Shown here: piece after piece, positions 7,796 to 49,500 of the stretch
How the letters are laid out: every line of letters begins with the position of its first letter
Numbering within the stretch: the first letter of the stretch is position 1
DNA from: Escherichia coli
Lineage (GTDB): Bacteria; Pseudomonadota; Gammaproteobacteria; Enterobacterales; Enterobacteriaceae
Length of the DNA stretch: 64,000 nt
Assembly (NCBI RefSeq): GCF_003334405.1
Contig: NZ_QOWM01000012.1
Direction: 5' to 3' (one strand)
The notes under the pieces: generated by a model
Databases searched by the model: none
Told to the model about the DNA's origin: nothing
What the model saw: only the letters and a program-made list of their open reading frames with translations
Translations under genes and position numbers: made by a program

Positions 7796-9592
7796 TTATT
7801 CTTCGGACTGGTCGTCGGTGTGCTGCGGCTCCTGTCGTTTCGTTGCGGCACTACTGCCTCCTTTATCACTGGCCGGATCGGTATCAAATACCAGATCCAG
7901 CTTGCGGTTTTCATCAATTTCGGCCTTGCGCCGACGTTTGACATCATCCGGATTACGACCACCAGCACGTACCCAGTCTGATTCTGTCGCCGCTCCACCA
8001 CGAATCTGGATTTTCCAGGCCTCAGCCTCCTTAACAGGGTCAATCCACGGCATCACTGGTCCGGAATACACCGCGGTATACAGTGAAGAACGGTCAAGAT
8101 CGCGGGGTAGCCTGATAACACCGGATGCCACAGCCTGTTTCAGCCACGCACGATACATCGGGCGGGTGACGGCACCAATAAACCAGTCCTGCAGGATCAG
8201 GTAGCTGGCCGGATCAATTCGCTGGCTCTCCCCGTCGCTGTCACCGCGCAATGACTGCGTGATGTTGTAACGATCAATAATCCAGCGTTCGCCACGGCTG
8301 CCATAGCCCGTTACCTGAACCACAAAACGGCGATGACGTCCCGCCTGCACATCCACTGTCGCCACAAGGAAATTAACGCCATCCGGCACACTGCGGGAAG
8401 GAACTGGCTCTGCCCGCTGCTCAAGCAGTTCACTTTTTCGTTGCTCCATGCTGGCGCGGGGAAGATAAGGTAATCCCCAGTCGGTATTGATAACCGTCTT
8501 GAGTGTTTCTTCACTTCCGGTTGTCTCGTATTCCTGTTCTGCAGTAAGCAGTTTGTAAACGAGTTGCGAGAGTGTCTGGTAAGCAGCTGCCGGACCCTCC
8601 ATCCAGAATGACGCAATACGTGAGCGTCGGGGATCACCATAACGACTGCCATCCGCATTGATGGATTCACCATCCCGCAACCAGACCCCACGTCCGTTCA
8701 GCTCACGTTTGTGTTCAGGCATAATCCGTCCTGAACAGGAAGGACACTGAATATAAGCCGCCTCACTTGCCAGCACGGGATCGGCAATATCACGGAAACC
8801 AGCAACCACATCGCCGCAGGGCTGAAAATACTCACCACAGTGTGGACAGGGCCAGTACCAGCGACGGCGATCGCCACGGTTATAGAGCGACAGTATCCCC
8901 GTGGTTGGTGGAGCCTCATGCGGTGAAGTCCGTCGCCATTTCACATCCTTCACATCCCTGCCGGGGGAACTCTCCACAAGCGTCATACCACTGGACATAA
9001 ATGTTGTGGTACGTTTTGAGGCAAGAGAGAAAGCATCCCCCTCGCCATCAATATCTTCCGGAAAACGGTCATAATCCGTCAGCGCGACGCATTTATAATC
9101 TGATGAGGACATGATATTGACTGACGGCCAGCCGATTTTCAGGTAGTTACCAGCAAGGAATGTTCTGTCATAAACGTTGTTGTCATTTTTGTTCGGACTC
9201 AGGCGACTGACCACTTCCGGGCTGACGCGAAACGTTCTGGCGAGTCGTTTTTTGGAGTGTTCGCGGGCTTTTTCCTCCGTCATCTGAATGATCAGCATAT
9301 CAGCAGGATCGCAAATCACGTTGTAAATCACCCAGCCGTCAATCAGGCCGATAGTCTTGCCGGTTCGTGCCGGGCCAACAAATATCACTGCGTCGTATTC
9401 ACGCGAGGCCAGGCAGTTCATCGGCTCAATAACATACGGTGCCACCAGCGGATCCCACGGGACTGAGTTCCCTGCCCCCATGGGCACCCGCATATACTGA
9501 GCAACGGCATCAGCAACCCGCATTCGTCTCGGTGCGCGAAGGATATAACCTGAATCGGTTCGTGCTGCCTTTGCGGTTTCCTGATTCAGCAT
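7796..9592 (-). CDS. Terminase large subunit, lambda GpA family (the C-terminal ~90 aa may be a fused remnant, see findings)
   Basis: 598-aa ORF with Walker A VGPARTGKT and zinc-finger-like WPCPHCGEYF...CPSCSG, typical of GpA-type terminases. Confidence 0.85.
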   Translation of the reverse strand: MLNQETAKAARTDSGYILRAPRRMRVADAVAQYMRVPMGAGNSVPWDPLVAPYVIEPMNCLASREYDAVIFVGPARTGKTIGLIDGWVIYNVICDPADMLIIQMTEEKAREHSKKRLARTFRVSPEVVSRLSPNKNDNNVYDRTFLAGNYLKIGWPSVNIMSSSDYKCVALTDYDRFPEDIDGEGDAFSLASKRTTTFMSSGMTLVESSPGRDVKDVKWRRTSPHEAPPTTGILSLYNRGDRRRWYWPCPHCGEYFQPCGDVVAGFRDIADPVLASEAAYIQCPSCSGRIMPEHKRELNGRGVWLRDGESINADGSRYGDPRRSRIASFWMEGPAAAYQTLSQLVYKLLTAEQEYETTGSEETLKTVINTDWGLPYLPRASMEQRKSELLEQRAEPVPSRSVPDGVNFLVATVDVQAGRHRRFVVQVTGYGSRGERWIIDRYNITQSLRGDSDGESQRIDPASYLILQDWFIGAVTRPMYRAWLKQAVASGVIRLPRDLDRSSLYTAVYSGPVMPWIDPVKEAEAWKIQIRGGAATESDWVRAGGRNPDDVKRRRKAEIDENRKLDLVFDTDPASDKGGSSAATKRQEPQHTDDQSEE

Positions 9593-10923: not shown

Positions 10924-11391
10924 CTACTTAATGCGCTGGGTGCGGATATATTCCTGCGCCCCTTCCAGTTGCTTCTGCATCGTCATCAACCGTTCTCTGA
11001 GGGTGAAATAATCCCGTTCAGCGGTGTCTGCCAGTCGGGGGCTGGTTGCATTATCCATGCTGGTGGGTCCGGTGGCTTCACGCACGGCTGCGGAGCAACT
11101 GGCATTGACCCGCAGGCGCTTACGACCAGCGGCAACATCAGCGCGCAGAGTTTCATTTTCAGTTTTCGCATCGGCTAACTCCTTCGTGTATTTTGCATCG
11201 ATCGCAGCAACATCACGCTGACGCTGCTGCATGTCAGCGATGGTGGCGGTCGCCTGCTTCAGCTCACTGACTTTTTTATCACGCTGTTCTTTGTAGGCGA
11301 TGGCGTTATCACGGTAATGATTGACCGCCCACGACAGGCAGACGATGATGCAGATAACCAGAGCGGAGATAATCGCGGTTACTCTGCTCAT
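10924..11391 (-). CDS. Rz: Spanin inner-membrane subunit Rz
   Basis: Strongly similar to lambda Rz ([31 protein letters not shown]...); ORF track start is 11403, likely start is MSRV at ~11391. Confidence 0.85.
10986..11171 (-). CDS. Rz1: Spanin outer-membrane lipoprotein Rz1, embedded in Rz in another frame
   Basis: 61-aa ORF with lipobox LVVSAC and proline-rich [29 protein letters not shown], as in lambda Rz1. Confidence 0.8.
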
Positions 11392-11885
11392 TGTTGCCCC
11401 CACAAACAGACTTCACGCTCAATCTCACGACGAGTCATCAGGCCTTTCCATTGCTTACCGCCAGCGTATGTCCAGCGACGTAGCTGGTCACATGCGCCTT
11501 TGATATCGCCCTGGTTGATTTTGCGAAGAAGCGTCGATGTTCTGAAATTGCCAGCACCCACGTTGTAGACGAACGAGTAAAGAGCGCCGCGCGTTGTTTC
11601 CGGTATATCGACTTTGATGTACGGGTTAATTTGTCTGGCGACCGTGGCAAGGTCTTTATTCAGGAGGGCTTTGCATTCTGCTTCGGTATACGTTTTACCT
11701 AGCATGATGTCTTTTCCGGTGTGTCCGTGACATACAGTCCATACGCCAACGATATCTTTGTATGGTATGTAGCTGACACCTTCCAGGCCATCGTCACCAC
11801 TCGGACCAGTGATGAGCACAGACGCTATGGCAACAGCCCCACCACCAATAGCAGCAGCAACAGCCTTGCGTAATGATGGCGACAT
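11388..11885 (-). CDS. R: SAR endolysin (phage lysozyme, phage 21 R-like)
   Basis: 165-aa ORF with an N-terminal weakly hydrophobic signal-anchor-release segment [18 protein letters not shown], then a lysozyme-like domain. Confidence 0.9.
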
Positions 11886-12100
11886 TATTCACCTCTCGCA
11901 GCCTTACGCTTATCTTCTTTAATCTTGAAATAAAGGTTTGTCAGATACGTCAGCAAGCCAAATACCAGACTACCTAGCACACCTATTGCCGCCCACTGTG
12001 AGGGCGTGACTTTATCGAGCAACTGTAAAAACCAGTACCCGGCACTACCTGCTGAGGTGCCATAGGCGACACCCGTTGTTAACTTATCCATGGATTTCAT
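11885..12100 (-). CDS. S: Pinholin (phage 21 S-like)
   Basis: 71-aa [29 protein letters not shown]... with the dual-start MKSM motif and two transmembrane segments, paired with the SAR endolysin. Confidence 0.9.
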
Positions 12101-12166
12101 AACCCCACCTCGCAGATGCGGGTGCTGTGTAATGGAAATAAAAAGGCCACCTACGTGGCCACCAGA

Positions 12167-13219
12167 TTATTTCCCCACCAGCTCGTTTATCTCTTTCACT
12201 GTCTGGTTAAACCGCTCTGACTCAAGCTCAACACCTAAGGCCCGACGCCCCAGCGCCATTGCTGCTTTTATTGTGGAACCGGATCCCATAAAAAAATCAG
12301 CAACCAGATCACCAGGTCGACTACTGGCATTGATTATTTGCCGGAGCATATCCGCAGGTTTCTCACACGGATGTTTACCCGGGTAGAACTGAACGGGTTT
12401 ATGCATCCAGACATCGGTATAAGGCACGGAGACTGATACGGAGAAATAGCGCCGGAGAGATTTAAACTCATCCAGCAATTCAGAATATTTGCGATTCAGT
12501 GAATCATAAGATGCCACCAGCTGGTGGTGTGGTTGTTCCAGTTGTTGTTCCTGAAACTTCTCTGCCGCTATACGGGAAAACAGTGCCTGTAACTTCCGAT
12601 AGTCAGCCTCATTCGGCAACTGCCACTGACTGGCACCAAACCAGTGGGAAACCATATTTTTCTTACCTGTGGCTTCGGCAATTTGTTTTGCCGTTATACC
12701 CAGTTCGGCACGAGCATCCCTGAAATACGATATCAGCGGTGCCATTATGTGCTGTTTGAGTTCCCTTTCTTTTGCCGCATAGCCGTCACTTTTGCCGCGA
12801 TATGGCCCCTGGTAATGTTCAGCAAACAGAACGCGCTCTGTGGCAGGAAAATATGCGCGCAGACTTTCTTTATTACACCCATTCCAACGTCCGGACGGCT
12901 TCGCCCAGATGATATGGTTAAGCACGTTGAAACGTTCACGCATCATGATCTCAATATCAGATGCCAGGCGATGCCCACAGAACAGGTAAAGGCTTCCGGC
13001 AGGTTTCAACACCCGCCAGAACTGGGCCAGACAGTGGTCCAGCCACTTAAGGTAATCTTCGTCCCCTTTCCACTGATTGTCCCAACCGTTGGGTTTCACC
13101 TTGAAGTAAGGCGGATCGGTAACAATCAGGTCAATGGAATCATCAGGCAGGGACTGAATAAAATGCAGGCAATCAGCGTTGATTAAATCAACACTGTTTA
13201 TTTTTACAGTATTTTTCAT
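12167..13219 (-). CDS. Orphan DNA methyltransferase (N6-adenine/N4-cytosine beta class)
   Basis: 350-aa ORF with motif IV DPPY near the N-terminus (LIVTDPPYF) and motif I FFMGSGST near the C-terminus. Confidence 0.85.
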   Translation of the reverse strand: MKNTVKINSVDLINADCLHFIQSLPDDSIDLIVTDPPYFKVKPNGWDNQWKGDEDYLKWLDHCLAQFWRVLKPAGSLYLFCGHRLASDIEIMMRERFNVLNHIIWAKPSGRWNGCNKESLRAYFPATERVLFAEHYQGPYRGKSDGYAAKERELKQHIMAPLISYFRDARAELGITAKQIAEATGKKNMVSHWFGASQWQLPNEADYRKLQALFSRIAAEKFQEQQLEQPHHQLVASYDSLNRKYSELLDEFKSLRRYFSVSVSVPYTDVWMHKPVQFYPGKHPCEKPADMLRQIINASSRPGDLVADFFMGSGSTIKAAMALGRRALGVELESERFNQTVKEINELVGK

Positions 13220-13368
13220 GGATCAGTAAGCGTAACTCTGGTAGGCTCACTCTGCTTTTGCGCTAAAGCAGTGGGCCGTGGTTCGCTTGTGACCAGTAAG
13301 CATGAGCGAATGGCTGGCAGGTGCTACCAACACCCACCAGCCGCCCATTTTCACAAATTAAAAGTCCT

Positions 13369-13587
13369 TCATTGCTGAAGGCGTCTGTAACAGCCGAACT
13401 GGTAATCTGCCAGCCCCGCCATAACCAACTGGGTCAGTATTAACTGACAGCGTTCGCGTGAAAGATATGTGTTTTGTGCAATCTCCCCGACTGTTGCCGG
13501 TTCGATGCTTAATTCATTAAAAACAACTTTCGCCGTTTCTGTCATATCTTGCTGTTTTAGCATGTCTTTTTTCCTTCTGGTTAACAT
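13369..13587 (-). CDS. Small hypothetical protein, possible winged-helix DNA binder
   Basis: 72-aa ORF; segment TVGEIAQNTYLSRERCQLILTQLVMAGL looks HTH-like. Confidence 0.4.
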   Translation of the reverse strand: MLTRRKKDMLKQQDMTETAKVVFNELSIEPATVGEIAQNTYLSRERCQLILTQLVMAGLADYQFGCYRRLQQ

Positions 13588-13662
13588 GACATACCAATAA
13601 CTCTTGTCTAAAAAGCCAGCAAGATAAAAAGTCAGTATTCACGACCACCAGCGTGTTTACCG

Positions 13663-13697
13663 TACTGCACCAGGTTTACAGGTACAAAAAAACCCGC
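13663..13697. terminator. Strong intrinsic terminator hairpin, candidate tR'-type element on the minus strand
   Basis: aaaaaaacccgctcgacggcgggttt; the minus-strand reading has the stem followed by seven T. Confidence 0.45.
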
Positions 13698-13975
13698 TCG
13701 ACGGCGGGTTTAAGTTGTGTGGCGAAGTAACCACTCTTGAGAGCATATCTGATTATTTACGATTGTAAATAATATATTCCCCCCAATAATTAGATTGAGA
13801 AAACATTACCATATTGATAATAAGGCAATTGACATAATTATAAAAATCATTCTTGGTTGATTTTAAAACAACAAATGCACGATATTTACCCAATCATTGA
13901 TGAATACATCTCTAAATGTTATAAATTTATTGTTTTTCTAAAGATAACTCTCATTCATATCAGGAAAGATAAAAA

Positions 13976-15427
13976 ATGTCAGACATAAAAAATATACTAA
14001 AATGCATGTACTTTGATAAAAATAGATACTCAAACTTTGGCTCCGTAATTAAAAGTCTAGAGATAAATGGATTTCGAGGAATAAAAAAACTAACATTAAA
14101 TATAAATTTTCCGGTAACTGCAATATCAGGGCTAAACGGCGCTGGGAAAAGCACTCTTGGGCAGTTAGCAATATGCGCATATAAAAAACCAGTTACAGCC
14201 CGTGAATATAAGAGATTATATATTAAAGATTTTTTCCCTGTATCTAAAGCCGATCCAGCCCCTTTCGATAATGACGCCAGTGTCATTTATAAATATGAAA
14301 CAAATGATTCAACGAAAACACAAGATGTGACTGTCACTCGCATAAAGTCTTCTTGGTCTGGATATAAAAGACAACCAGAAAGACACTGTTTTTACATTGG
14401 TTTTACTGTCTATATTCCAAAAGTAGAACGTAGAGATATAAGTGTTTATGGCGGTAAAGACTTTGATTTAACAGAGAGAAGAAGCGTCGACCATTCAGTA
14501 ATATTGAAGATGGCAAAAATAATAGGTCATCCATATGATGATATCGCATTCCAAGGAATTTCTCATAGAGCACGTCGTTCAGAAATTGGTATTGTTGAAA
14601 GACTTGGGTATTCTTATTCTGAAAATAACATGGGGTTTGGCGAAGGAAGAGTTCTTTATACGGTTGATATGCTTGAAACAGCTCCAGAGCAAAGTCTTTT
14701 CGTACTAGAAGAACCAGAAACATCTCTTCATGAAAGCGCACAGTATGAATTTGCAAAATATTTAATGGAAGTATGTCAACGTAGAAAACATCAAATAATA
14801 TTATCAACACACTCAAGTGTGATATTAAATGCTTTACCTCCTGATGCACGAAAATTACTTATTAGAGATCAGACTGGTGTCTATATCAAAGATGGAATTT
14901 CAACAACTCATGTGAGATCAATACTGTCTGATGGGCAGTTTAAAGGGCTGCATATTTGCGTAGAAGACCAGTTTGCAAAAGTTTTACTTAGTGAAGTAAT
15001 TAGAGCAAAGCGGAGAGACATTCTTAAATCCATTCAAATCACTGATATTGGAGATAAAGATGCAGTCCGACAAGCAGTCGAGGTATTCAAGAAAGCAGGC
15101 CTTAATGTTATTGCCGTAAGAGATGCAGATGTTGGAGAAAACATTAAAGATGATTTATTTTCTTTCCCTGGCAATAGGCCACCAGAAGTAGAAGTATTTC
15201 AACATGAGGAAGTAAAAAAATTCCTCTACAAGGAGTATCATATTGATTTTGATTGGTTAATAAAAAAGGAAGGGATTAGTGATCATCACAATTACACTCA
15301 AGCAATTGCTAAAGAAGCAGAATGTGAGGAGGAAGTAATTAGAACTTTAGCAATAAAAAAATATATTGAAATTATTGATGAGAAATTTGACCCACTTATT
15401 ACAAATATAGTAAGCAAAATAAAATAA
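13976..15427 (+). CDS. OLD-family-like ABC ATPase with C-terminal TOPRIM-like nuclease motifs; candidate single-gene anti-phage defence moron
   Basis: 483-aa ORF on the opposite strand to the phage operons, in an AT-rich island; Walker A GLNGAGKST, Walker B/D-loop LFVLEEPETSLH, H-loop LSTHSS, then ICVEDQ and IAVRDADVG (Toprim-like E and DxD); SD aggaaag upstream. Confidence 0.8.
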   Translation: MSDIKNILKCMYFDKNRYSNFGSVIKSLEINGFRGIKKLTLNINFPVTAISGLNGAGKSTLGQLAICAYKKPVTAREYKRLYIKDFFPVSKADPAPFDNDASVIYKYETNDSTKTQDVTVTRIKSSWSGYKRQPERHCFYIGFTVYIPKVERRDISVYGGKDFDLTERRSVDHSVILKMAKIIGHPYDDIAFQGISHRARRSEIGIVERLGYSYSENNMGFGEGRVLYTVDMLETAPEQSLFVLEEPETSLHESAQYEFAKYLMEVCQRRKHQIILSTHSSVILNALPPDARKLLIRDQTGVYIKDGISTTHVRSILSDGQFKGLHICVEDQFAKVLLSEVIRAKRRDILKSIQITDIGDKDAVRQAVEVFKKAGLNVIAVRDADVGENIKDDLFSFPGNRPPEVEVFQHEEVKKFLYKEYHIDFDWLIKKEGISDHHNYTQAIAKEAECEEEVIRTLAIKKYIEIIDEKFDPLITNIVSKIK

Positions 15428-15599
15428 CAAACCAGCAGGCGCTAATTACTAAAAACCTTGTACATTAGCGCCACCCTCAAATAAATTAGTGGTTATTAAA
15501 TCCCCACAAAAACATTAATATAAAGCACAAACAGTCCACCCTCCTTAATTTCATGCTAACAATACAAATTAAAAATCCAGATACTCATAAAATATCTTT

Positions 15600-15986
15600 C
15601 TAGATATTTGAGTCCATTTCCAATTCTATTTCTAACATTATCAACATACCTTCAATGATGCCTTCTGCCTTTTGCAATAAGCGCCCAACCCAGCAATCAG
15701 AACGCCCATGTTTACGGGCAAGCGCCATAAACGTCATACCACCTACATAATAATCTACTAATAAATCGTGCAAATCGCTGTTGTTCTTTTTCAGACGGGC
15801 CATGCACCCGCAAATGATCATCGCGTCATCGTCACAACATTGCGGACGGGATTTTACTTTTGAAGGAAGTAATCCCTTAAAACCGGCAGCAATGGACGAC
15901 CAGGTCACATCCTCATGATTATTAGCCGCCCATGCCCCCCAACGTTCAAGAACCATTTGAATATCACGCATCAACTTCCTCCACAA
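15600..15986 (-). CDS. Q: Late-gene antitermination protein Q
   Basis: 128-aa ORF with Cys-rich zinc-binding block [14 protein letters not shown]; sits upstream of the lysis and packaging genes. Confidence 0.8.
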
Positions 15987-15988
15987 AA

Positions 15989-16984
15989 TCAGGCCAGCAC
16001 GCCTATTGCCAGCGCACGATCGATAAAACGAAATATCAGCTCCAGCTGGGAACCATACTTCTCTTCAAATGCCACGGTATCCGCATGCAGCTCGTCGTGA
16101 TGCTTTCTGCACAAAGGCAACACAAAGAGGTCATGCGCTTTTGTAGCCATTCCACCCTGACCGTGGCCTATCAGGTGGTGGGGATCATCAGCAGGCTTTC
16201 CACAACATGCACACGGCTGTGTCTTAACCCAGCGTGTGTACTTTTCATTAACCCAGCGGCGACGTTTTGGGCGTAACATAAAAGACTCCGGCGACTCCGG
16301 ATCCACTTTCAGCGCCAGCACCTTTTTCGCCTTATCCTGGATGATGCTGGTGGCAGGAACCGAAGGCACAAGGTCACTTTCCCGGGTGACAGACGGCACA
16401 ACAGGCTTCGGTAATCTCAGTGCCTTACGGGCTGCACTTTCCGGTAAGGCATCCGCCAGGTCATTACGAATCAGCCACCAGCACAGTTCCGGCATTGTCA
16501 CAACGTGACTGTCATCAAAACCGAGATCCCGACGCACAACAGACAACACCCAGCGGGCACAGTTATCCGTTGCCATTGATTCCAGCCGTTCCGTGAACTG
16601 ATCACGCAGCTGGTTATCGCAGTGCCAGCACAGACGGATTGCGCCCGGCGCGTGTCGCATTGTTGTCATGTTCTCGCTGTGCCAGTCGGAATGAGGCCAC
16701 TGGCAGCCTTTTTCACGAAGTAACCAGCTTTCAAGACATTCCACGCCACCAGCACGACGGATCACTGCCTCATTGCGGAACACGGCCCGAACGGCAGGAT
16801 CATCCGCCAGCGGTTGTGATGCCGCCGGAACGGCACCACTGGCGAAAGATGAATAACGTTCCGGCTCAGGCTCCAGCAGGACACGCCCCTGCATAAACAG
16901 GGGCATCAGCTCTGAACCTGGTCTGAACAATACGATCCCCATACGCGGGGCAATTTCAGGGGTCAGTAGTGCTCTCACGGTCAC
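15989..16984 (-). CDS. Phage protein (DUF968-like) with a C-terminal Cys/His zinc-binding motif
   Basis: 331-aa ORF; C-terminal [14 protein letters not shown]...CRKHHDELH. Confidence 0.65.
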
Positions 16985-20295: not shown

Positions 20296-20855
20296 GCGTT
20301 AGTTTCTCCACAGTCACGACACGCCACGGCGCCCGGAGCTGCACACTCGCGGGCGTCACTACTTTCTGAAACGCAAAAGATTTTGTAGACCAGTGCTGCA
20401 TGCTCCTGCAGCTTCGAAATTGAGAGGTACAGCTCGTCGTTAATTGCTGTCTTCTCATGCGGTTCCACTACACCGTCTTCAATTGCTGAACGAATCTGTT
20501 TTGAATAACTGCCGATCTGTTCAATGACCTCCAGCAGGCGTTGGTTGATATCGGCGTTGTCCACATCCTCGACATCAGGAAGAGACACAAAAACGCCATT
20601 TGCAGACTGCGCCACAGCGTCAGCAATGAAGTGAGTTCCACCAGCACGTTGCAAAATCATTGCCCATCCCAGCGGGAAAATCTGATCGCCATCGGCACGA
20701 AGGCGGTTAAATAATGCGTTCTCTGTTACATCCAGCCAGTCAGCCGCTTCAGCGTAACCACCCGGCAACGCCGCGATAGTTTTTCTGACAGCTTTCACGT
20801 ACCACTCAGGCTGTTTTTCTATTTTCCAGTGATGCTTACCCACGATTAGCCTCAT
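20292..20855 (-). CDS. YdaT-like phage protein
   Basis: 187-aa ORF immediately downstream of the Cro-like gene, the same arrangement as racR-ydaS-ydaT in the Rac prophage. Confidence 0.55.
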
Positions 20856-20886
20856 CGTTCTGTGGTTAAAAATTGAAAGTGTTCTG

Positions 20887-21087
20887 CTAATCTTTCGGAT
20901 AGATATCCGGTCTTAAGTCAGATTTCGTAATTGCACCTGACGTGCATTGCTCAAGTTTTTTAGCCAGCACAAAACTGGCTTTTTTATAGCCATTGAAAAC
21001 CAGCCGTAAGTAGCCAGGTGTTGAGCCAACTTTTCCGGCCAACTCGCCCTGCTGTTCTTTGGTTAAAGAGTCCCAATACGCTTTCAT
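20887..21087 (-). CDS. Cro/YdaS-like small HTH regulator
   Basis: The ORF track extends this to 21390 (167 aa), overlapping the cI start; the plausible gene is the last 66 aa (MKAYWDSLTKEQQGELAGKVGSTPGYLRLV...), divergent from cI. Confidence 0.6.
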   Translation of the reverse strand: MKAYWDSLTKEQQGELAGKVGSTPGYLRLVFNGYKKASFVLAKKLEQCTSGAITKSDLRPDIYPKD

Positions 21088-21177
21088 ACAATATGTACCT
21101 CCGGTATACATATTACATGATTGAAATGAACCTTCAAGATACTTGTACCTTAACGGTACAAGGGTTTTAATTTCGTT
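21088..21177. promoter_or_regulatory. Divergent cI/cro promoter-operator region with palindromic operators
   Basis: CTTGTACC-ttaac-GGTACAAG perfect inverted repeat and ATATGTACC-tcc-GGTATACATAT; more TGTACC half-sites at 21890-21925. Confidence 0.5.
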
Positions 21178-21852
21178 ATGAAAACAATCCATGACATCCG
21201 GCGGTCTAACGCCAGAAAACTGAGAGATGGTGTTGGCGGGAATTCTTCCTTTGCCACTATGATTGATCGCGAGCCAACCCAAACCAGCAGGTTTATGGGA
21301 GATGGTGCTACTAAAAATATCGGTGACAGCATGGCACGACACATCGAAAAATGTTTCGACCTGCCTGTCGGATGGCTCGATCAAGAACACCAGACAACGA
21401 ACATCACAAAAAAACCTGATGTTTCAATCACTAATAAACAAATCACATTAGTCCCTGTCATATCATGGGTACAGGCCGGAGCATGGAAAGAAGTTGGATA
21501 TTCTGAGGTTGATTTGAGCACAGCAGAAACGTATCCCTGCCCTGTACCCTGTGGGGAAATGACTTATATCTTGCGGGTGATAGGTGATTCAATGATTGAT
21601 GAGTACCGCCCGGGAGACATGATTTTTGTCGATCCTGAAGTACCTGCCTGCCACGGTGACGACGTTATTGCATTGATGCACGATACAGGTGAAACCACCT
21701 TCAAAAGGTTGATAGAAGATGGGACACAGCGTTATCTCAAAGCGTTAAACCCAAACTGGCCTGAGCCTTACATTAAGATCAACGGTAATTGCTCTATAAT
21801 TGGTACTGTGATTTTCTCAGGAAAACCAAGAAGATACAAAATCAAAGCTTAA
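21178..21852 (+). CDS. CI-like prophage repressor with LexA-type S24 autopeptidase domain
   Basis: 224-aa ORF; C-terminal half has the S24 Ser/Lys dyad context (VIGDSMIDEY ... TFKRL). Confidence 0.8.
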   Translation: MKTIHDIRRSNARKLRDGVGGNSSFATMIDREPTQTSRFMGDGATKNIGDSMARHIEKCFDLPVGWLDQEHQTTNITKKPDVSITNKQITLVPVISWVQAGAWKEVGYSEVDLSTAETYPCPVPCGEMTYILRVIGDSMIDEYRPGDMIFVDPEVPACHGDDVIALMHDTGETTFKRLIEDGTQRYLKALNPNWPEPYIKINGNCSIIGTVIFSGKPRRYKIKA

Positions 21853-21855
21853 TCA

Positions 21856-21882
21856 ATGTTTATGAACCTGCTTCGGCAGGTT
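21856..21882 (+). terminator. Rho-independent terminator after the repressor gene
   Basis: gaacctgcttcggcaggttttttta. Confidence 0.5.
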
Positions 21883-22086
21883 TTTTTATACTTGACAATG
21901 TACCTTTGAGATACATAATGTACCCAAGAGAAACAACAAACAGGCAGGACGCTCACGAAGTAGCCGCCTGGGGCATATGAAGTCCAGGATGATTCGTTAG
22001 CAACAAAAAAGCGCCCTACAGGACGCTTAGCTCTTTAACAATCTGGTCCCCATCAACAAGTAACTGATAACTTGAGGAGGTGTGAA

Positions 22087-22293
22087 ATGCACAAAACAGA
22101 ACCCAAAATCGTTGCGCCTGGCTACACAGATGAGGAAATTTATGAGTGGATGACAAAGAAGCTGGCAGCTATAAACCAGCTTCGTGAAGTGCTGTCTTAT
22201 CGACAGGAAACAATAGACTCCTTAAAAAAACTGGATCAGGAAATCACGGTTTTATCACAGGATGTTACTTTAGATATTGTGCAGACAAATTAG
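22087..22293 (+). CDS. Hypothetical small protein
   Basis: ATG preceded by gaggagg; MHKTEPKIVAPGYTDEEIYEWMTKKLAAINQLREV...; AT-rich island. Confidence 0.4.
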   Translation: MHKTEPKIVAPGYTDEEIYEWMTKKLAAINQLREVLSYRQETIDSLKKLDQEITVLSQDVTLDIVQTN

Positions 22294-22699
22294 GATCCCA
22301 TTCATTTTCGTCAAAATCATCAAAGTGATGAATTTGTGATCTCCAGTCTCGATAATCTAAAAATTTCTGGGCGGTTACGCTTATTTTATCAAGTGTGAGT
22401 TCATCCTGAATTGAAAGAAGAAGTTCATCAAATTTCATCTCATTAATCTGTTTTGGCATCCAGTGATGCTTCATCAGAATAAGGTGAACCAGTGCCTTTT
22501 TCCCATTCAACTGATTATAGGGAGTGCCGAATTTCTTCCGGTGCTCATGTAAGACAAGGTCCAGAAGAGTAAGTAATGTTGCCCTTGATTCCACTTTGCT
22601 TATTTCGACTGATGACACTACCCCACTGATTTCAATGCCCCGATACTTTCCAACATTTTCACAGTGGGATTTGTACAGCGTGTAGATATTACCGGACAT
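22265..22699 (-). CDS. Hypothetical protein, candidate moron
   Basis: 144-aa ORF in an AT-rich island, convergent with the previous ORF; no recognisable motif. Confidence 0.45.
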   Translation of the reverse strand: MSGNIYTLYKSHCENVGKYRGIEISGVVSSVEISKVESRATLLTLLDLVLHEHRKKFGTPYNQLNGKKALVHLILMKHHWMPKQINEMKFDELLLSIQDELTLDKISVTAQKFLDYRDWRSQIHHFDDFDENEWDPNLSAQYLK

Positions 22700-22739
22700 T
22701 TCTTTTCCTTTTGCGTTGTTGGGGATAACCAGATTAACC

Positions 22740-23200
22740 GAATCCTTGTTGTTGGGGAATAACCAGGTCCACCTCGCCTGATGTGGCTAAAAGCAGGCAC
22801 ATAACAGCTAAGTATTTTTAACCAGAGAGAATCCTTAGCGTTGTGGTGAATGCGGCTCAGCGCACGCGGGTTAAGGTTGAGGCTGACAGTCGACCTTCTG
22901 TGGATACCCACCCGTCTGGTGTGCAACCTTCGCCAGGCACCGGGAGGCACCCGGCACCACAACTTTATGCTGTGTGTAGTCCTGGAGGTACCAGTTTGTA
23001 CCCTTGCTTCCGGCTGGTACCGTCCTTTTTACAAAACAGAGAAGAGCATCACCGGACGACGGGCTCATAACCCAATCCATCCGGGCGGCTGCCACCGCAG
23101 GTGTTCTTCTCTGTTTTGTGGAGAAACTAACCGCCCCTACGGGGGCATTCATGGAAATGTAATTGACTCAATAATCGCCGGACGGTGAGGGCTTCCTTTT
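22740..23200. other. GC-rich ORF-free segment, candidate structured non-coding RNA or decayed gene
   Basis: All overlapping ORFs are Arg/Pro-rich and look non-coding; long-range complementarity GTTGTGGTG...CACCACAAC and local stem GGTACCAG...CTGGTACC. Confidence 0.3.
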
Positions 23201-43484: not shown

Positions 43485-43590
43485 CTGCCTGATGCGCTGC
43501 GCTTATCAGGCCTACAAGGTTTCTGCAATATATTGAATTTGCAATATTTTGTAGGCCGGATAAGGCGTTCACGCCGCATCCGGCAAGTCC
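43485..43590. repeat. REP elements between lafB and lafA
   Basis: cctgatgcgctgcgcttatcaggcctac ... gtaggccggataaggcgttcacgccgcatccggcaag. Confidence 0.7.

Positions 43591-49274: not shown

Positions 49275-49500
<226 letters not shown>

Follow-up and report, generated by a model that had tools for sequence, protein, structure and literature searches.

A hairpin beyond a prophage defence gene as the probable tR' terminator of a compact, Q-dependent late cassette

Gene order at the locus

The stretch of Escherichia coli DNA analysed here, 64,000 nucleotides in length and referred to as the window in the following, carries an E. coli lambdoid prophage that adjoins a tRNA-Thr gene and has its rightward and late genes on the minus strand. 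Along this strand, a DUF968 gene precedes the gene for a late antiterminator, Q, which is followed by a low-GC region with a counter-oriented ATPase-TOPRIM gene and then by the hairpin that is the subject of this study (Table 1). Downstream of the hairpin, and again all on the minus strand, lie a small open reading frame, a DNA adenine methyltransferase, the holin, the endolysin, Rz and the small and large subunits of the terminase. Holin and endolysin are annotated as essD and rrrD in the Z247 prophage, and the lysis genes of phage 21 have the same order.

Table 1. Features of the locus in the order of minus-strand transcription, with their positions in the window
Feature	Position	Strand	Basis
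DUF968 gene, before Q in transcription order	15989-16984	minus	
Late antiterminator Q, QuuD-like, Q21 family, 123 aa from ATG	15600-15971	minus	Pfam PF06530
Insert-specific low-GC cargo ('moron') between Q and late promoter	13770-15612		homology breakpoints, GC, distribution
Possible terminator hairpin, GGCGCTAAT...ATTAGCGCC, where the Q and defence genes converge	15438-15472	either	sequence and folds
ATPase-TOPRIM defence candidate, 483 aa, counter-oriented	13976-15427	plus	PADLOC HEC-04, E = 3.9e-47
11-mer ATTGGGTAAAT, an exact match to part of lambda pR', considered non-functional as late promoter	13884-13894	minus	
Predicted pR', -35 element TTTACA	13764-13769	minus	promoter scan; homology to other QuuD-type phages resumes at 13769
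Candidate Q-binding element, 8-mer ACAATCGT, near-palindrome over -35 and spacer	13759-13766	minus	tracks Q class
Predicted pR', -10 element TATGCT	13742-13747	minus	promoter scan, spacer 16 nt
Near-invariant 23-nt segment AAGAGTGGTTACTTCGCCACACA, start site and most of leader	13716-13738	minus	cross-class comparison
Predicted late transcription start, A, 7 nt after -10	13735	minus	homologous K-12 Cappable-seq site
Probable tR', intrinsic terminator of the short late-promoter transcript	13686-13711	minus	scan, fold, homologous annotated site in SfV
First late-operon ORF, 64-72 aa, 'TrmB family transcriptional regulator' in some records	13369-13587	minus	
DNA adenine methyltransferase, second late gene	12167-13219	minus	NCBIfam NF008572, E = 1.2e-31, and record annotations
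Second terminator-like hairpin, GGCCACGTAGGTGGCC then TTTTTATTT, just upstream of holin gene	12145-12160	minus	scan
S21-type holin	11885-12100	minus	ORF
Endolysin	11388-11885	minus	ORF
Rz	10924-11403	minus	ORF

The Q protein matches its Pfam family over the entire model (E = 2e-51, model positions 1-118 of 118), shows distant similarity to the structures of phage 21 Q (6P18/6JNX, E = 2.6e-8) and is named 'antiterminator Q family protein' by PGAP in near-identical genomes. Its last few codons are specific to the insert that follows, with homology to relatives stopping at 15613. The gene is not immediately upstream of the predicted late promoter, pR', as 1,830 nt separate its stop codon from the -35 element in the window. 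A position of Q next to pR' is the canonical layout, but the mechanism does not require it, because Q can diffuse.

The counter-oriented gene is named 'ATP-dependent nuclease' by PGAP. Besides the best PADLOC match given in Table 1, it matches ATPase-Toprim_I-B (E = 2.5e-22) and, more weakly, the AriA/GajA-type ATPases. Between this gene and the convergent Q gene lies a hairpin that we considered as a clear terminator after Q. On the plus strand (15438-15472) its fold has a z-score of -3.1 and no T tail follows, while on the minus strand (15472-15438) the T-rich tract TGCTGGTTTGTTATTTTATTTT follows and the fold is not better than that of shuffled sequences (z = -0.2). Given the minus-strand shuffles and the missing plus-strand T tail, we rejected it as a clear terminator and list it as a possible one.

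The terminator hairpin

Read on the minus strand, the hairpin upstream of the late genes has the sequence AAACCCGC-CGTCGA-GCGGGTTT, in which a stem-loop (13711-13690) with a stem of 8 bp, five of them G-C, and a loop of 6 nt runs into a T7 run (13692-13686). A stem of this kind followed by U7 is the make-up of an intrinsic (Rho-independent) terminator. The element is the top-ranked terminator-like site in a scan of 10 kb, and its fold of -12.0 kcal/mol (z = -3.0) was equalled by none of 200 shuffled sequences. Sequence and position are both kept in SfV, cdtI, phiP27, mEp460, PhiR40_1, the DLP12 prophage of K-12 and more than 150 viral contigs, so that its occurrence is far beyond chance. The small reading frame directly after it is kept in SfV, phiP27, cdtI and loci without an insert.

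An earlier note on this DNA had described, for the minus strand, a GC stem that ends in seven Ts and is placed between the defence gene and the methylase and lysis genes, about 1.9 kb downstream of Q, and had taken it for a strong terminator upstream of the lysis-side genes. Such a hairpin is present, but it extends from 13686 to 13711 and not from 13663 to 13697; the latter interval, offset by ~14-25 nt, comprises only the 3' arm and the tail together with ~23 nt beyond. The location relative to the genes is as described, with the plus-strand ATPase gene on one side, the minus-strand late genes on the other and 1,889 nt between the stop codon of Q (15600) and the start of the stem (13711), and the assignment as a terminator of the late genes is supported by the evidence presented here. 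A role as the terminator of the defence gene itself was rejected, since the hairpin lies upstream of the start of that gene and the plus-strand T tract is weak.

Searches against Rfam, conducted for the whole window at gathering thresholds and for 13300-14100 in E-value mode, returned no match above threshold at the site. Below threshold, it resembles the Trp and Leu leaders (22 and 18 bits versus cut-offs of 41 and 50), look-alikes that reflect only the shape of a leader followed by a terminator. For K-12, a search of the supplements of one study that mapped RNA 3' ends gave no entry for the homologous region (PMC7815308).

The second terminator-like hairpin, just upstream of the holin gene, has a counterpart in the SfV record, where a putative terminator is annotated at the equivalent place. 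In an Stx2c phage, the terminator described above is duplicated around a cargo gene. In the window, it probably also blocks read-in from the insert, and it would do the same for read-in by early transcripts.

The predicted late promoter and its leader

The promoter that the scan places in front of the terminator matches the consensus at only 9 of 12 positions, and one promoter-like site, TTAAAA-18-TATAAT on the minus strand (13866-13837), scores above it, 100 nt further upstream in insert DNA. The earlier note had seen weak evidence for a promoter within 13660-13975; the predicted pR' (13769-13735) falls into this interval, though not at the position that the note had named. Across related loci, which we assign below to six classes by their Q, a -10-like hexamer (TATGCT, TATCCT, TATCGT, TAATCT, TATTAT or CAGTAT) is equidistant in every class from an invariant core, the 23-nt segment AAGAGTGGTTACTTCGCCACACA. 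This segment is unchanged in almost every locus, whichever of the six Q classes it belongs to, and has a single copy in the window. From 13735, the predicted leader with its terminator extends over ~50 nt, and a transcript from this promoter would meet an intrinsic terminator within tens of nucleotides.

Within the leader, a 5-bp hairpin is possible at +2..+17, and three variants of the core neither support nor break its pairing. Given its invariance in all classes, the 23-nt leader could have a function of its own, for instance as a pause/loading signal, a small RNA or a recombination linker. A convincing sigma-dependent pause element was not found in +1..+20. AAGAGT is the sole hexamer near the start with an A at position 2 and a T at position 6; it lies across the start site, at -3..+3, a position that is atypical compared with the pause elements of lambda (about +1..+6) and phage 21 (+2..+8).

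An insert between Q and the late promoter

For a comparison across phages, we scanned viral contigs for the leader motif and combined the result with a search for Q relatives, which gave 169 loci; 139 of them have Q upstream on the same contig. In phages with the same Q type but other inserts, among them PhiR40_1 and a DLP12-like prophage with a porin gene, homology to the window ends in the last codons of Q, at 15613 or 15640, and is back exactly at 13769, the first base of the -35 element TTTACA. Phages with an unrelated Q, such as SfV with its Q of the lambda family (PF03589), share sequence only from the terminator stem onward (13710). It follows from this pattern that the terminator belongs to the downstream late-gene module, and that the ~58 nt preceding it are tied to the Q type.

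Eight related loci of three sequence types have no insert: the stop codon of Q is just 10-17 nt from the position of the -35 element, and the same small reading frame and methylase follow. By sequence, these loci represent the canonical Q-pR'-tR' arrangement. Elsewhere, the gap between Q and pR' accommodates 28 insert clusters, many of them with matches to defence families.

In the window, the breakpoints relative to PhiR40_1 and the DLP12-like prophage lie at 15613 and 13769. They delimit an insert of 1.84 kb with a GC content of 23-40%, compared with ~50% in the flanks. Of 5426 complete E. coli genomes, 11 contain this insert, in each case in the same slot, and it is absent from all phage records searched. 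Sequence comparison thus identifies the defence gene and its flanks as counter-oriented cargo that was inserted between Q and pR'. Because the insert is located upstream of the predicted late start, late transcription is not expected to run over the defence gene. This bears on the proposal in the earlier note that late transcription from Q would run antisense over the ATPase-TOPRIM gene and could shut it off during lytic growth: with pR' downstream of the gene, the antisense course is not supported for late transcripts, and a shut-off by this route is unlikely. Antisense RNA over the defence gene is possible from early-operon transcripts that read past Q.

The homologous cassette of K-12

A closely comparable arrangement is found in the DLP12 prophage of K-12, with the layout quuD - nmpC (a counter-oriented porin) - promoter/terminator - essD rrrD rzpD. 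It is long established that nmpC and lc lie between Q and the lysis genes. The DLP12 cassette, which is located between the nmpC porin pseudogene and essD, reads TTTACG-16-TATGCT-gtt-AAGAGTGGTTACTTCGTCACACA, followed by the same hairpin; with an identical -10 element and 22 of 23 identical core bases, it is directly homologous to the cassette in the window. In both cases, counter-oriented cargo lies between Q and the cassette and S21-type lysis genes come after it. The two loci differ in their Q class (…GKHCCSDGYIGKRLQ… in DLP12) and, in parallel, in the 8-mer of the promoter (ACGTACGT in DLP12), as well as in their cargo, which is a porin interrupted by IS5 in DLP12 and a nuclease in the window. 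Furthermore, DLP12 has neither the small reading frame nor the methylase between terminator and holin, and its T run is shorter (T5).

Before inspecting published start sites, we computed the DLP12 nucleotide that is homologous to the predicted start at 13735. It is NC_000913.3 577229, corresponding to U00096.2 576452 with an offset between these two versions that we take to be 777 nt, the sole check on this value being that it puts two start sites 7 nt past -10-like hexamers. At exactly 576452, the Cappable-seq data list a plus-strand start with a low relative read score of 1.7 (Ettwiller et al., PMC4782308, Additional file 1); as the local density is about one start site per 470 nt per strand, such an exact coincidence would occur by chance with a probability of ~0.2%. 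Between 573406, inside quuD, and 575093, ~1.5 kb beyond the quuD stop codon, this table lists no plus-strand start, and it therefore provides no evidence for a promoter just after Q. It does contain a strong plus-strand start at U00096.2 576081 (score 90), which is nmpC-proximal, 371 nt upstream of the cassette and pointing at it (PMC4782308). A search of the literature for promoter mapping at QuuD/essD yielded nothing usable, and one DLP12 paper only cites a promoter fragment from -121 to +650 (PMC7918800).

A promoter element that tracks the Q class

At positions 4-11, the promoters contain an 8-mer that matches the helix-turn-helix class of the respective Q without exception, over 139 loci, six classes and 28 insert clusters. 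The 8-mer of the window, ACAATCGT, is found with the window's Q class in 48 loci with four insert sizes, whereas ACGTACGT pairs with K-12 QuuD, GCGTACGC with mEp460-like Q, CGGTCCGC with cdtI-like Q, GGAATTCC with the Q of phiP27 and GTTATAAC with a sixth Q class; most of these class-specific 8-mers are palindromic. One combination of spacer and -10 element, aaaaattcttgTAATCT, is seen with two different 8-mers, each beside its own Q class, which means that the 8-mer follows Q and not the rest of the promoter.

The L058-type phages, which have the window's Q class without the conserved leader, at first appeared to be counter-examples. In each of the 11 L058-type loci, however, TTTACAATCGTAAA occurs exactly once, as predicted, ~1.9 kb after Q and within the best promoter-like site of the region. 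Their promoters also keep CAGAGT, the counterpart of AAGAGT.

From these comparisons, we infer that the 8-mer is a candidate Q-binding site. Its link to the Q class could in part be a matter of co-inheritance, as the two sites are only 0.6-3 kb apart, yet the link persists through 28 insert clusters and a change of leader. Combining these observations with the layout of the loci, QuuD-type Q may read an 8-bp, mostly palindromic and class-specific operator over the -35 element, with at least six specificities, and not tandem repeats like those of phage 21, and the stretch from Q to this operator may serve as a dedicated hotspot for cargo in the opposite orientation, the genes of which would be active in the lysogen while remaining outside late transcription. 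We put this combined proposal forward tentatively, with a shade more doubt than belief. If true, an 8-bp operator would imply a different geometry of Q loading. The literature that we searched describes neither the gap between Q and pR' as a cargo slot nor class-specific 8-mers, which is weak evidence of absence.

Proposed mechanism and alternative explanations

We consider it very likely that the hairpin is the tR' of a self-contained, compact, Q-dependent late cassette of the phage 21/DLP12 type, with pR' located downstream of the defence gene. By analogy with phage 21, the sigma-70 promoter (13769-13742) would start transcription at about 13735, and without Q the polymerase would halt ~50 nt on at tR', leaving the small reading frame, methylase, holin, endolysin, Rz and packaging genes silent. 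Upon induction, Q produced from the early operon would bind the class-specific promoter element, for which ACAATCGT (13766-13759) is the candidate, and would load onto the early elongation complex, presumably at a pause, to render it resistant to hairpin-dependent termination. The polymerase could then pass both tR' and the second hairpin (12160-12145) and proceed into the late genes.

The model of the earlier note differs from this cassette in placing pR' beside Q as in lambda, from where late transcription would run 1.9 kb antisense through the ATPase-TOPRIM gene and silence it in lytic growth. This layout has precedents, as pR' directly follows Q in lambda, phage 21 and the eight loci without an insert, and the convergent orientation of Q and the defence gene fits as well. 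In the window, however, the 173 nt that follow Q belong to the insert and show no conservation with the Q type, and in the promoter scan the minus strand has no promoter-like site from the stop codon of Q to the end of the defence gene (15600-15430). The conserved promoter with its class-specific 8-mer is instead found on the far side of the insert from Q, and in K-12 the start site coincides with the distal cassette, with none listed just after quuD. Against this evidence, we regard a promoter beside Q as very improbable. Even less credible is a lambda-like pR' at about 13890, for which the note had pointed to a short match. The match itself is genuine: the window has one copy of the 11-mer ATTGGGTAAAT, on the minus strand, which agrees at every base with the spacer/-10 region of lambda pR' (positions 770-780 of our lambda locus, L210), and a leader of ~190 nt from there to the terminator would resemble lambda 6S RNA in length. 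Its proposed role as the late promoter did not hold, since there is no -35 hexamer 16-18 nt upstream, and the DNA around it comes only with the insert (11/5426 E. coli genomes), and none of the other phages with this Q has it. Moreover, no more than 11 nt of lambda pR' match, which is not rare for a query of ~60 nt against 128 kb of AT-rich sequence, and a lambda Q-binding site is irrelevant here because the window's Q belongs to PF06530, not PF03589. We therefore attach next to no probability to this reading.

It is also conceivable that the hairpin serves mainly as an insulator against early read-through past Q or against transcripts from promoters in the insert, and not as a Q-regulated terminator. 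The promoter-like site in the insert (13866-13837, minus strand) and the strong K-12 start at U00096.2 576081, which is aimed at the cassette, would provide transcripts to insulate against, and the terminator is common to phages with unrelated Q families and duplicated around the cargo gene of the Stx2c phage. Nevertheless, such a role is compatible with the Q-dependent cassette, as one hairpin could do both, and the fact that promoter, leader and terminator stay tightly and invariably linked, together with the parallel in phage 21, argues for Q-regulated termination as the primary role. Insulation as the main function is therefore improbable in our view.

For the widespread E. coli prophages of the DLP12, mEp460, cdtI and phiP27 types, the Q-dependent cassette implies that the late promoter travels with the terminator and not with Q, and that cargo after Q is consequently outside the late transcription unit. 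This bears on the expression and insulation of prophage defence genes and of porins such as nmpC, and also on the annotation of pR' in Stx and other converting phages. The class-specific 8-mers, in turn, provide directly testable predictions on Q specificity.

Comparison with known systems

In phage 21 (record OL657228), Q is directly followed by a -35 element, a spacer with two Q-binding subsites of 8 bp, the -10 element, the start site, a sigma-dependent pause element at +2..+8 and a terminator that spans +3 to +50. The Q proteins of phage 21 and of the window belong to the same Pfam family (PF06530), and both loci combine a promoter that has a regulatory element in its -35/spacer region, a candidate in the case of the window, with a terminator that begins within ~25 nt of the start and yields an RNA of ~50 nt, followed by an S21-type holin and an endolysin. 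Yet the two systems also differ in several respects. In an alignment, the window's Q, with 123 aa, lacks a loop of about 18 residues that is part of the DNA-binding motif in Q21, and the ATTGAGCA/AATGAGCA tandem repeat of phage 21 is absent from the window, where the class-specific 8-bp near-palindrome stands in its place. Unlike phage 21, the window has no clear pause element at +2..+8, and Q and promoter are separated by 1.84 kb of cargo instead of 6 nt. Because the candidate element is a near-palindrome and not a tandem direct repeat, the mechanism of phage 21 may not transfer in detail.

SfV (U82619) shares the downstream part of the cassette: the 'putative rho-independent terminator' annotated after its Q is the same hairpin, a site that is also found in Stx2c phages, and from 13710 onward SfV and the window are 97.7% identical, with the same small reading frame, methylase and second terminator. 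However, the Q of SfV belongs to the lambda family (PF03589), the ~107 nt from this Q to the terminator bear no relation to 13712-13769 of the window, and no cargo is found there.

In its logic, the predicted cassette resembles the pR'-qut-tR' system of lambda with its 6S RNA, in which a constitutive late promoter, early termination and Q-dependent read-through control the lysis and structural genes. The same logic underlies the short pR' transcript of Stx phages, the small RNA StxS (PMC7547250). Lambda differs from the window in its Q family and Q-binding site, and its leader is 194 nt long compared with about 50 nt. On the whole, the element in the window is homologous to the DLP12 cassette and built like that of phage 21, from which it departs in the missing tandem repeat, the atypical position of the pause candidate and a Q gene set apart from its promoter.

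A class-specific motif and an invariant leader

A distinct 8-mer overlapping the -35 element accompanies each of the six helix-turn-helix classes of the late antiterminator Q, both in the window and at the equivalent position of the related loci, and most of these six 8-mers are palindromes. From this pairing of Q class and 8-mer, a motif was predicted for the L058-type phages, which carry the window's Q class together with cargo unlike the window's, and was afterwards located there. We regard the class-specific 8-mers as a candidate Q-binding code. By contrast with the promoters and terminator loops on either side of it, which differ between loci, a 23-nt leader segment, AAGAGTGGTTACTTCGCCACACA, is invariant in all Q classes.

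The L058-type phages, which are without the conserved leader, are also arranged differently. A strong terminator lies about 100 nt past their Q gene, and 1.9 kb farther along comes a pR'-like promoter, that is, one resembling the late promoter. No terminator directly follows this promoter in these phages; in L058, the next hairpin with a T-run downstream lies just 5' of the holin gene.

Features of the late region in the window and related loci
Feature	Locus	Position	Strand
8-mer overlapping -35	window	13759-13766	-
23-nt leader segment	window	13716-13738	-
Insert between Q and late promoter	window	13770-15612	
Promoter-like site	window	13866-13837	-
Second terminator-like hairpin, between methylase and holin gene	window	12145-12160	-
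DNA absent relative to Z247	window	~8202-8205	
Counterpart of the absent DNA	L090 (Z247 prophage)	20776-22794	
Post-Q terminator	L058	5477-5500	
pR'-like promoter	L058	7257-7284	
T-run hairpin 5' of holin	L058	8355-8376	
Terminator hairpin copies	L007 (Stx2c phage LC727876)	3326; 4003	

Cargo and possible module exchange

Judging from the related loci (L002-L209) and from the window itself, the stretch separating Q from the late promoter seems to be a hotspot for cargo. The inserts of 132 related loci fall into 28 clusters, in 25 of which the largest open reading frame is counter-oriented. Six of the ten insert representatives tested have PADLOC family matches, namely to PDC-M53A, PDC-S20 (KAP NTPase-like), PDC-M68A (HNH), TIR-TM, PDC-S33 and HEC-04.

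The terminator hairpin appears to serve also as a joint for module exchange. The Stx2c phage has two copies of the window's hairpin, and between them lies a sense-strand open reading frame for a lipoprotein-like protein of 141 residues. This reading frame comes after the late promoter region that belongs to the phage's Q, a long protein (264 aa) of the SfV-like kind. Farther downstream in the window, the second hairpin would be a further site that Q-modified polymerase must pass.

State of the prophage copy

About 2.0 kb of the near-identical Z247 prophage is absent from the window, where the large terminase gene lacks its 3' end, the portal gene lacks its 5' end and a small gene between them is missing. 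The window's copy of the prophage is probably defective for packaging. Two Rfam matches, at 49347-49424 and 43508-43550 (-), fall in the window's chromosomal part; they are to naRNA4, with 83.9 bits, and to ES036, with 44.6 bits, respectively, and have no relation to the terminator finding.

Comparison with known systems

In the DLP12 region of K-12 (L089), the slot after Q that the insert fills in the window holds the porin pseudogene nmpC. Beside the nmpC start, Cappable-seq data show a strong start site on the plus strand (U00096.2 576081, L089 ~3359; score 90) that is directed at the late cassette and precedes the weak pR' start site by 371 nt. A promoter-like site comparable to it is present in the window. 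In the record of SfV, a putative terminator is annotated at the position corresponding to the window's second hairpin. The candidate Q-binding code of class-specific 8-mers differs from the tandem repeats of phage 21.
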